From positions 1 through 48,520 of the forward strand of contig CAVWIH010000009.1 in NCBI GenBank assembly GCA_963755025.1: a DNA stretch of 48,520 nucleotides, in the 5' to 3' direction. The notes below the pieces were generated by a model. That model did not search any database. It worked only from the letters and a program-made list of their open reading frames with translations, and was not told the origin of the DNA. The DNA comes from an uncultured Actinomycetes bacterium (GTDB lineage: Bacteria; Actinomycetota; Thermoleophilia; UBA2241). The number at the start of each line of letters is the position of its first letter. The first letter of the stretch is position 1. Below are positions 3,480 through 6,258 of this stretch, piece by piece. Both the position numbers and the translations under genes were made by a program.

Positions 3480-3635
3480 ATGAGCGCACAGGGAGATAAG
3501 TCAGCTGCACTTGCTGAGCGGCTCGCTTTAGAGCGTGAATGGCACCCCGACAAGCAAGCCATGCTCGCCGCGCTTCGGGTAGTGCTGGGCCTTCCCCCTA
3601 GGCCGGTGAGGTTCGCCGAGGAGGCCAGCTCATGA
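3480..3635 (+). CDS. Small 51-aa protein translationally coupled to the recombinase (not in the ORF track)
   Basis: Hand translation [51 protein letters not shown]; its stop overlaps the recombinase start as ATGA at 3632-3635. Confidence 0.65.
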   Translation: MSAQGDKSAALAERLALEREWHPDKQAMLAALRVVLGLPPRPVRFAEEASS

Positions 3636-5234
3636 CTGCAACTCTTCTCGAGACGCTGCCCGCTTCTACCCGCGTTGCTACCTACGAGCGCGTGAGTTCA
3701 GACGAGCAGCGCGAGCGCAATACCATCGCCATGCAACGCTCTGCCCTGGACCGTGCGCTTGAGGTCCACGCCGATTGGAAACTCGTCGAACGCTACGTCG
3801 ATGACGGCGTCTCTGGCACCGTGCCGTTCAACGAACGACCGGGCGGAGGGCGTCTGATGCGTGATGCCGAACTTGGGCTGTTCGATGTCGTGCTCGTCTA
3901 TGACTTCAGCCGTATGGGGCGGCACGAGTACGACCCGCTCTACGTGCACTGCAGGCTTGCGTCGAACAACGTGGCTTTACGCTCAATCCACGAGGGTGAC
4001 GCCGACGGCCTCCTCTTCCCCATCTTGAACGCCATGGCCAACAACGAGCGCAAGACCTTCCTGCGCCGGTCGGCCGACGGCATGAACGAGGCTGCGAGAC
4101 AGGGCCGCTACTGCGGCGGCATCGTGGCCTACGGCTATCGCGTCGAGGGACACAAGAACACTTCGCATCTGGTCCCGGCTGAGGAAGTGCCGGCCGGCAG
4201 CTTGATGAGTGAGGCCGCTGTGGTGCGCCACATCTACCAGCGACTCGCAGCCGACGGTTGGAGCTGTCGGAGGGTCGCGGGACGAGTTGAACGATTTGGG
4301 CGTGCGCACCAAGTACGCCCTCGACGGTCGAGGCGTCAAGGGGCGCGGGACCCAGGGCCGCTGGGGCGCCGGGCGCATCCGCGCAATGGCGACCAACCCG
4401 GTCTATCGAGGCGAGCAGCTCTACGGGCGCCGAAGCGCCAAGCAACGCGAGGTGGTGAGTGCTCAGGCGCCGGCGCTGGTGTCCCCGGACGTGTGGCAGG
4501 CGGCCCAAGCGACGCTCAAGCGCAACTGCGCCGTTCCCAAGAACACGCGGCGCATCTATCCCCTCCGCGGTGTCTTGAAGTGTGCCATCTGTGGACGCAA
4601 CTTCTGTGGCACGAGTAGTCACGGTGAGAACTGGTACAGATGCGATGGCACCCTTCGTCGCTCCGACCTGGTCGGCGAGCGCTGCTGCGCCAAGCGCGTC
4701 AAAGGTGCCTACCTCGAGCCGGTCGTGTGGCGTGACATCGAACGCTTCCTGCGCGACCCGGGAGACGTCCTCCTCGAGCTTCAACAAGAGGCCGCTGGAA
4801 ACCCTGCTCGTGATCGCCTAATCGAAGATCGCACGCGCCTTGAGGCCGCCCTCGCTGAACGACGAGACGAGCGCGGGCGGTTACTCGACCTCTACCAGCA
4901 CGGAGACATTGCGCGGCCGGAGTTCGAGCAGCGCGCTGAGGAGCTTCGAACAGCAACAACCAAGGTCGAGGAGCGCTTGGCAGTGCTGGTCGGCGAAGAG
5001 GACGACCAGGAAAATGAGCATCTGGATCCGGACCTATTGGCGGAGCTTCGGCGCCGCCTGGACGAGGGCCTATCGCCCGAACAGCGTCAGGAGATCGTGC
5101 GCCTGCTTGTGCGCGACATCACCATACACACGGGTTCGGACTCCGCGCGATCACAACGCGCTGTCATCCGGTATCGGTTCGACGGTGCAGTTGCGACCTG
5201 CACGGACAGGGGTTCATGGCGGCCACCAGCATGA
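3632..5234 (+). CDS. Large serine recombinase (integrase), about 533 aa after correcting one extra G at about 4280
   Basis: Catalytic [21 protein letters not shown]; recombinase domain; zinc ribbon [11 protein letters not shown]...YRC...C; coiled coil; the two ORFs join as RRVA-DELNDLG; GAGGAGG RBS. Confidence 0.93.
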
Positions 5235-6258
5235 TGCGCGCCGGAAAGGTGAGCGACGAGAGCGCACGCGAGATGGTGACCTCGCCGTCTTCGAGCGGCT
5301 GGCGCAGGCCCTCGAGAGCGGAGAGGCGAAACTCGGGGAACTCGTCGAGGAACAGGACGCCGAGGTGCGCCAGGCTGACCTCGCCTGGGCGCGGCGTGGC
5401 GCCGCCGCCCACAAGGCCGACGGCCGAGATGGTGTGGTGCGGCGCCCGGAACGGGCGCCGCACCACGAGCGCCACGCCGGGCGGCAGCACGCCGGCCACG
5501 CTGTGCACGCGCGTGACGTCGATCGACTCGTCGACCGACAGCGGCGGCATGATCGAGGGCACGCGGCGCGCCAGCATGGTCTTGCCGGCGCCCGGCGGAC
5601 CGACCATGAGCAGGTTGTGCGCGCCGGCCACGGCCACTTCGAGGACGCGTTTGACGCGGCCCTGGCCGAGGACGTCGGAGAGGTCGGCGTCGGTGGCCTC
5701 GTCGCGGCTCAGCAGCGTGGCGGCGTCGGGCCCGGCGGCGGCAGGCGCGGGCGCGCCCGCCAGCAGCGCCGCGGCCTCGCGCAGCGTGGCCGCGGGCAGC
5801 ACCCGCAGGCCGGTGACCAGGGCCGCCTCGGCGGCGTTGGCGGCCGGCACCAGCAGCGCTCGCAGACCGCGTCGGCAGGCGCTCTGCGCTACGGCCAGCA
5901 CGCCGGCCACCGGGCGCACCGCGCCGTCGAGGCCGAGCTCGCCGATGGCCGCCGCGCCGTCGAGGGCGCAACGGCTCTGGCCGGTGGCGCAGAGCAGCGC
6001 CAGGGCGATCGGCAGGTCGAACGACGGGCCCTCTTTGCGCACGTCGGCGGGCGCCAGGTTGACGGTGATGCGCCGTGACGGGAACTCGTAGCGAGAGTTG
6101 ACGATGGCGGTGCGCACGCGCTCGCGACTCTCCTGCACGGCGGCGTCGGGCAGGCCCACGATGGTGAAGGCCGGGGCCGCCGGCACGACGTCGGCCTCGA
6201 CCGTGATGGCGTGGCTGTCGAGCCCCGTCAGGGCTTCGCTGGGCACCCGGGCGAGCAT
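5164..6258 (-). pseudogene. comM: ComM/YifB Mg-chelatase-like AAA+ ATPase, 5' fragment (about 353 codons) interrupted by the element
   Basis: [61 protein letters not shown]-terminal third missing; follows yraN. Confidence 0.93.
5180..5225. other. Hybrid attachment site (attL/attR) at the element-comM junction
   Basis: comM frame reads AAMNPCPC then non-homologous [11 protein letters not shown]; short inverted repeat GTGCAG..CTGCAC at 5185-5203; exact crossover not resolvable. Confidence 0.75.

Follow-up and report, generated by a model that had tools for sequence, protein, structure and literature searches.

The interruption of the bacterial gene comM by mobile genetic elements (MGEs) has been described as a recurrent theme, with hosts such as Aggregatibacter, Acinetobacter with its AbaR islands, Mannheimia, Francisella and Pseudomonas and, for one integrase family, with an insertion site that is orthologous across genera (Croucher et al., 2016, PMC4774983; a 2025 review, PMC12378983). 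In the same sources, the disruption of comM is proposed to shield the element from removal by transformation (PMC4774983, PMC12378983). Equally, homologues of magnesium chelatase/ATP-dependent protease have been reported as the targets of 12.4% of predicted site-specific large serine recombinases (LSRs), with competence genes enriched among the LSR targets and with the Pfam families PF01078, PF13541 and PF13335 represented by 19, 16 and 13 target clusters versus 0 in random (Durrant et al., 2022, PMC10083194). Furthermore, the LSR sr1WO of phage WO is described to integrate in the magnesium chelatase gene of Wolbachia, the halves of which flank the prophage (PMC9203015). A further case is found within the window, as the initial 48,520 bases of contig C9 of the 39-contig draft genome G000 of an uncultured high-G+C soil or peat bacterium are called throughout: comM is split by an integrative element that very probably entered the gene by means of its own LSR. 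That comM is a recurrent target of mobile elements, as an earlier note on this DNA had held, is documented in print (PMC4774983, PMC12378983, PMC10083194).

The three Pfam families enriched in the LSR survey are the three domains of the comM gene split here, so that LSR targeting of the comM family is already in print, under the magnesium chelatase name; the survey covers isolate genomes, whereas the present locus belongs to an uncultured high-G+C soil/peat lineage, and the likeness holds at the level of the gene. A paper pairing comM with a large serine recombinase or serine integrase under that gene name did not turn up in whole-word searches of the literature. The recombinases of phage WO are among the phage matches to this LSR, but at 25-26% identity the similarity is very distant and WO is a full tailed prophage; the one WO record examined, WOVitA2, contains no NPCPC codons at the recombinase end. 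In A. noterae DSL2, the prophage ANDSL2_ph1 (Acetoanaerobium phage; PP197248.1) has a 31%-identical LSR convergent on a comM 5' fragment cut at AAMNPCPC and a TGTCCG core. The host is a low-G+C Firmicute, the phage measures 36 kb and encodes holin and endolysin, and no primase-helicase adjoins attP in the stretch examined. The Gram-negative MGEs disrupt the same gene as in G000, but their hosts are known to be transformable, whereas the G000 lineage is not known to be. AbaR islands are Tn7-like transposons, with a mechanism unlike that of an LSR. The Listeria phages A118 and phi10403S also place an LSR element within a competence gene, as in G000, with comK instead of comM as the target; the LSR prophage that splits comK is reportedly a model of reversible active lysogeny, for which regulated excision is said to have been shown.

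While a comM insertion in this lineage changes nothing fundamental, the locus is a well-resolved case from an uncultured high-G+C soil or peat lineage, for which the two junctions, an unoccupied site, another, diverged copy and attP in free form are all available. It extends the published view of comM-family genes as the commonest LSR landing site and narrows the site to one dinucleotide in conserved sensor-region codons, which could aid the prediction of att sites for this group of LSRs.

The two halves of comM and the empty site in a congener

In the window, comM is present as a 5' fragment of approximately 351 codons (5207..6258, minus strand), which encodes the ChlI domain and most of the AAA+ Mg_chelatase domain and ends at the NPC(PC) codons. 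The open reading frame (ORF) starts at 6258 and breaks off at ...AAMNPCPC; its residues 1-353 (window 6258-5200) reach 417.9 bits against TIGR00368 (YifB/ComM; cut-off 362.4) and cover only positions 3-350 of the 499 profile positions. Of the full domain architecture, the window contains PF13541 (ChlI) and PF01078 (Mg_chelatase), the latter only as far as position 164 of 207, and a second contig of G000, C7, contains PF13335 (Mg_chelatase_C). Comparison was made with three congeners, G002 (the closest relative among the genomes compared), G003 and G004, among 12 genomes of the genus and 89 genomes of the order. The ComM fragment is 95% and 96% identical on the protein level to its counterparts in G004 and G002, respectively, with zero indels over 1059 bases compared with G004.

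Convergent on this fragment lies the LSR gene (3632..5234, plus strand), with approximately 534 codons in two frames and a stop codon (5232-5234) that is comM-derived DNA. The statement of the earlier note that a serine-recombinase element interrupts comM at its NPCPC motif is thereby borne out. The Resolvase domain PF00239 (E 8.7e-23, residues 16-160) is present together with the stretch YERVSSDEQ, a serine of which is presumably the nucleophile, and the second frame holds Recombinase PF07508 and Zn_ribbon_recom PF13408; LSR homologues of 554-745 amino acids possess the same three domains. In G000, the gene is not contained in a single frame owing to a surplus base within a G run (approximately 4279-4283), the only indel compared with the intact gene of G004. 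Logan contigs from four peat or soil sequencing runs (X1-X4) were mapped on window 1-8000, and contigs of X1 and X2 do not have the extra base at 4279; with 38 of 737 and 13 of 349 letters deviating from the window, they represent variants with an in-frame LSR from another strain. The extra base may be an assembly error. At E <= 1e-30, the LSR was detected in two of the 89 genomes of the order, G000 and G004; the G004 protein is the nearest LSR found with 77% identity, the next being 56% identical or less, and a search of the species-genome collection for closer relatives yielded just two hits, with 43% identity.

The continuation of comM is located on contig C7, where from base 1061 the 3' half (GYRGD...SGPLLDRIDL) is followed by dprA, in agreement with the earlier expectation for the far end of the element, and profile matches to Mg_chelatase_C and DprA are found at the start of this contig. 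From C7:1061 onward the DNA reads TGTCCCTGC GGC TAC..., encoding CPCGYRGD..., and proceeds past a frame slip to ...HACRCPEHRLAQYRQRLSGPLLDRIDL with dprA next, while C7:1-1057 encodes on the opposite strand the N-terminal part of a primase-helicase that begins at the junction. As genes of the element abut both comM junctions, C9 and C7 both begin within the insertion. The remainder of the primase gene is absent from the G000 assembly, where the sole match is a 37%-identical paralogue on C13.

On the other hand, comM of G002 is an uninterrupted open frame of 510 codons, the protein of which reaches 553.2 bits on TIGR00368 over profile positions 3-499. Contig C13 of G002 is colinear with C7 from 28932 down to 1061 and then with C9 from 5200 up to 48513, so that C7:1061 and window position 5200 adjoin at this empty site with flanks overlapping by 9 bp (core TGTCCnTGC); bases 5200-5208 of the window are this core, common to the 5' and 3' parts of comM. 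G004 is occupied with an attL sequence and junction identical to those of G000, an intact LSR gene (77% protein and 75.5% DNA identity to the G000 LSR) and, on a second contig that carries attR, an intact comM 3' half, dprA and a primase-helicase of 819 amino acids, which reaches 266 bits against the P4-family primase C-terminal domain TIGR01613. A search of other contigs for the ends of the G004 element gave only look-alikes of 55 and 86 bases with 90-93% identity. The colinearity of G002 over the empty site and the same junction in G004 exclude a chance association of the LSR with comM: the recombinase gene lies beside its attachment site, the comM halves rejoin in frame and the site is empty in a relative.

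Equally, the junction at 5200 is real. Record 6 of X1 spans 4962-5316 (5 differences) and record 13 of X2 spans 5077-5427 (9 differences); each extends well over 31 letters beyond the junction in both directions, and the runs derive from different studies. As two public metagenome assemblies bridge the junction, which also occurs in G004, the misassembly that the earlier note had considered at this position is ruled out. That assembly or binning joined unrelated DNA at 5200 is thus extremely improbable; such a chimera might be suspected because the G000 draft consists of 39 contigs, at 84% completeness, 5% contamination and approximately 71% G+C, and because C7 and C9 both start inside the element, but the same junction recurs in G004, in Logan contigs of X1 and X2 and in 12 relatives on metagenome contigs, and synteny with G002 is exact on either side. 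The G+C content is 62-67% in the first 5 kb, the element, versus 72-74% in the adjoining flank. Parts of window 1870-3200 have little or no Logan contig cover. Loose contig ends at 5200 in X1, X3 and X4 run, by hand translation, into GFYGD codons; with GYRGD as the G000 allele, the sequences of these ends identify them as the uninterrupted comM of other organisms.

A further observation concerns G003, in which the contig with the comM 5' part (L030, C29:1-120) stops right after ...AACCCGTGTCC (TGTCC) and overlaps the start of the 3'-half contig (L032, C204:1-120) by 25 bases. The break is the base at which attB and attL diverge, which suggests that occupied and empty alleles coexisted in the sample; an LSR of the comM-targeting kind was not found in the G003 bin.

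Attachment sites, crossover and site use across relatives

The attL site spans approximately 5183..5232 on the minus strand, with the core TGTCCGTGC at 5208-5200, the TG at 5208-5207 and a P' arm with AACTGCACC. A rebuilding of attP, which had been proposed in the earlier note, was done from C7 and C9 and gave a dyad axis on this same TG with 20 of 26 positions complementary. In five natural attP forms, the dyad axis equally falls between T and G of TGYCCG, with 15-20 of 26 positions complementary compared to 10-14 for the next best axis. Because the dyad axis is located there, the central dinucleotide, and with it the place of crossover, is most likely the TG with which the first Cys codon of NPCPC starts (5208-5207; C7:1061-1062), as judged from symmetry. 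The core has one mismatch, G in attL versus C in attR, and this fits a crossover at TG, since the natural attP loci have CCG and the G002 attB has CCC.

As a side effect of this geometry, the final approximately nine codons and the stop codon of the LSR gene (window 5209-5234; G004 counterpart L029:2600-2626) read across attL. The LSR frame crosses attL, and therefore this tail is antisense of comM; in a free attP form, the tail would come from the primase-side arm and differ.

Site use was subsequently compared across relatives. A profile of the G004 LSR and 12 homologues retrieved 501 relatives on metagenome contigs, and the comparison continued with the best 80; 20 of these can be evaluated, as their LSR is at least 40% identical and its 3' end is present. 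In 12 of the 20 the LSR converges on, and is joined to, a comM 5' fragment that stops at the NPCP(C) codons (L047, L049, L050, L051, L052, L054, L055, L058, L059, L061, L062, L068), with an LSR identity of 40-48% for the comM-targeting relatives. Five loci (5/20: L045, L046, L053, L057, L066) represent a free attP with the core between inverted GTGTAGTT and AACTACAC motifs, one (L063) has the left (P-arm) motif only, and the remaining two (L019, L020; one sequence in two records) adjoin a flavoprotein gene. More distant LSRs, 33-34% identical, also adjoin comM at NPCPC codons in L064 and L067. The element is thus a member of a widespread LSR lineage with attB in a conserved stretch of comM, and targeting of this stretch is observed family-wide, with related recombinases using the identical site in other phyla. 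Terminal overlaps, a sign of circularity, were present in none of eight metagenome contigs.

The deviating locus L019/L020, with records labelled Solirubrobacterales and Limnocylindrales among metagenome-assembled genomes, has an LSR 47% identical to the G004 LSR and the TGCCCGTGC core, yet its neighbour is a fumarate-reductase/succinate-dehydrogenase-like flavoprotein gene and not comM. Either a secondary target or an attP with an unusual arm may explain this arrangement.

In the proposed course of events, the integrative element would have entered comM through conservative site-specific recombination catalysed by the LSR, most likely at the TG. Read in the direction of comM, the layout is the comM 5' part, attL, the LSR gene pointing towards attL, an XRE-type regulator and a protein of 447 amino acids, continued by an unassembled gap, a Prim-Pol/D5-type primase-helicase pointing away from attR, attR, the comM 3' half and dprA. 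Upon circularisation, LSR, attP and primase would be placed in one orientation, as in the free form L057.

Frameshifts, probable loss of ComM function and a possible switch

The reading frames at the far end require consideration of their own. Compared with G004, the primase piece C7:1-1045 of G000 contains nine single-base indels, seven of them 1-base insertions; the comM 3' half contains two G000-specific 1-base deletions (C7:1086, 1357), and dprA further G000-specific frame-breaking indels including 4-base and 2-base deletions, whereas both are intact in G004. Were these frameshifts and the one in the LSR gene real, the G000 copy would be a dead remnant with comM beyond restoration. For such a decay speak the nine indels in 1045 bases of the primase gene, the series of G000-specific indels of 1, 1, 1, 4 and 2 bases, among others, in the comM 3' half and dprA, an identity to G002 of 77-87% in the comM 3'/dprA region versus 87-98% further along and the 4-base and 2-base deletions, which are unlike simple homopolymer slips. 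However, the indel density declines away from the start of C7, reaches into xerC and is sparse thereafter, and three 1-base deletions in xerC (C7:3276-3356) jointly restore the frame. Approximately ten frame breaks compared to G002 ORFs affect unrelated conserved genes over approximately 77 kb of C7 and C9, with aroB in the window split over two frames, and even the low-contig-count G002 has its own -2/+2 pair in dprA where the many-contig G004 has none. Moreover, real decay is characterised by a deletion bias, unlike the insertion-rich indels of the primase gene. On account of the density gradient, xerC, the other breaks, aroB and the dprA pair of G002, an unpolished long-read contig end is rated the more likely cause and probably explains the frameshifts, which leaves real decay as a rather unlikely account. 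Without reads, pseudogene calls at the unpolished C7 end, that is for comM 3', dprA and primase, are not trustworthy.

Elsewhere in the window, genes are split between frames compared to G002 ORFs at 41730-43280, 42173-42763, 20037-20371, 21955-22444, 23630-24263, 26577-28039 and 45069-46032. In aroB, the N-terminal part and DHquinase_II occupy one frame and DHQS_C another, and one gene of 165 codons is spread across three frames; these splits look like a general indel-error load of the assembly. The dprA pair of G002 (L033-L036, C13; C7:2368 and 2515) consists of a 2-base deletion and a 2-base insertion approximately 150 bases apart within the conserved core and at CCTGG-like sequences, absent from G004 and G000, and may stem from a sequencing error that recurs at a methylation motif or from a genuine frame change confined to this spot.

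The insertion removes profile positions 351-499, and for this reason the interrupted ComM is very probably inactive. The missing part presumably contains the arginine finger (SGPLLDRIDL) and sensor 2, by analogy to the MCM/Mg-chelatase AAA+ clade. Of the pilMNOP genes named in the earlier note, PilM is confirmed by PF11104 (E 7e-37) at 47051-48379, while pilNOP are putative, as the three ORFs downstream of pilM gave no Pfam match at E <= 0.1. In addition, comEC is present elsewhere in the G000 genome and dprA on C7. A role of ComM in branch migration during natural transformation is reported for Gram-negative species (PMC6158740), and ComM is summarised as helpful for transformation, yet not essential (PMC12378983). 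A suppression of transformation by the element is plausible.

A rival account sees in the element a reversible switch for comM, akin to active lysogeny, with precise excision, restoration of comM and re-integration. Since LSR recombination is conservative, attL x attR would rebuild NPCPC-GYRGD in frame, free attP forms of family members occur in metagenomes, the contig break of G003 after TGTCC with its 25-base overlap resembles an assembly graph at an occupancy-polymorphic site, and the G004 copy is intact on either side. Yet a recombination directionality factor (excision factor) was not identified, neither an excised nor an empty form of the G000 strain is among the loose ends listed, the G000 copy is frameshifted, and free forms and polymorphism are to be expected of any mobile element without being a sign of a regulatory role. 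A switch is therefore considered unlikely. If the frameshifts of G000 are real, one in the LSR gene and two in the comM 3' half, excision cannot restore comM, whereas in G004 a switch is conceivable as LSR, comM 3' half and dprA are intact. Similarly doubtful is the wider scenario of a satellite-like family (LSR, attP, Prim-Pol/D5, small terminase) in uncultured Actinomycetota- and Chloroflexota-like soil bacteria, which would use NPCPC as a universal landing site, be polymorphic in populations and toggle comM, with the toggle lost in G000 and comM-dprA decaying.

The insertion of an integrative element in comM by its LSR is nevertheless held to be very probable as an overall account, even though several points weigh against it. 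The LSR gene is frameshifted in G000, attB is without a clear dyad (13 of 26), and an attB or attP form of the G000 strain does not figure among the loose ends listed for X1-X4 on window 1-8000. Equally, the element is incomplete in the assembly, which lacks the remainder of the primase gene and in which C9 and C7 each begin within the element, and a HAD paralogue and genus-wide repeats in the first 1.7 kb are odd for cargo, so that a rearrangement is possible.

Gene content of the element and its relatives

Upstream of the LSR gene, an XRE-type helix-turn-helix regulator is encoded at 3084..3461 on the plus strand (PF13560 HTH_31, E 1.9e-7; transcriptional repressor in PHROGs). On the minus strand at 1777..3120 follows the 447-amino-acid protein, which has no match in Pfam, PHROGs, NCBIfam or PADLOC; a diverged homologue, the ORF L029:3-767, is located at the equivalent position in the G004 element as indicated by weak tblastx matches and the reading of both translations.

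Phage-inducible chromosomal island (PICI)-like satellites combine an integrase, a primase/replication gene, a small terminase and regulators in approximately 10-15 kb without virion genes. The LSR, the XRE regulator and the primase-helicase are present, and a small terminase was not found in the assembled parts of G000 and G004; other terminase or virion genes are equally absent from these parts. In L057, a 10.6-kb contig in the attP form with an LSR 46% and a primase 36% identical, the order is LSR, attP, primase-helicase and then a small terminase (Terminase_4). L047 possesses a small terminase (Terminase_4) and an ImmA/IrrE-type regulator just upstream of the LSR gene. The predicted gene content of L057 and L047 hints at a satellite-like or small phage-related element. 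In L046, L051, L055, L057 and L058, a tyrosine recombinase gene (Phage_integrase) is situated 2-4 kb upstream of the LSR gene. Furthermore, genes for a DUF4062-SIR2_2 protein and a large AAA ATPase in L051 and for a HigB-like toxin in L057 look like defence or addiction cargo.

The left contig end (1..1776) is placed within the insertion by synteny and contains a HAD-family hydrolase gene (31-687, plus strand; PF13419 HAD_2), a terminator-like dispersed repeat (approximately 1316-1456) and a 163-bp repeat (1511-1673); this end may be cargo of the element. Paralogues of the HAD gene with 68-75% nucleotide identity are located in other chromosomal contexts in congeners and on G000:C37, and its metagenome contig depth exceeds that of the remaining element. 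The gene may have been captured from the host, or its presence may indicate a rearrangement. Identification of the dispersed repeat at 1316-1456 as a tRNA was rejected, as tRNA and Rfam scans of window 1-6000 gave nothing. Copies of this repeat, 70-140 bases long and composed of a G+C-rich hairpin with a T run behind it, are present at numerous loci in each of the 12 genus genomes with 78-86% identity. The 163-base stretch contains an inverted repeat, and its identity is 96% to G000:C22:17045-17207 and 88% to a locus in G003.

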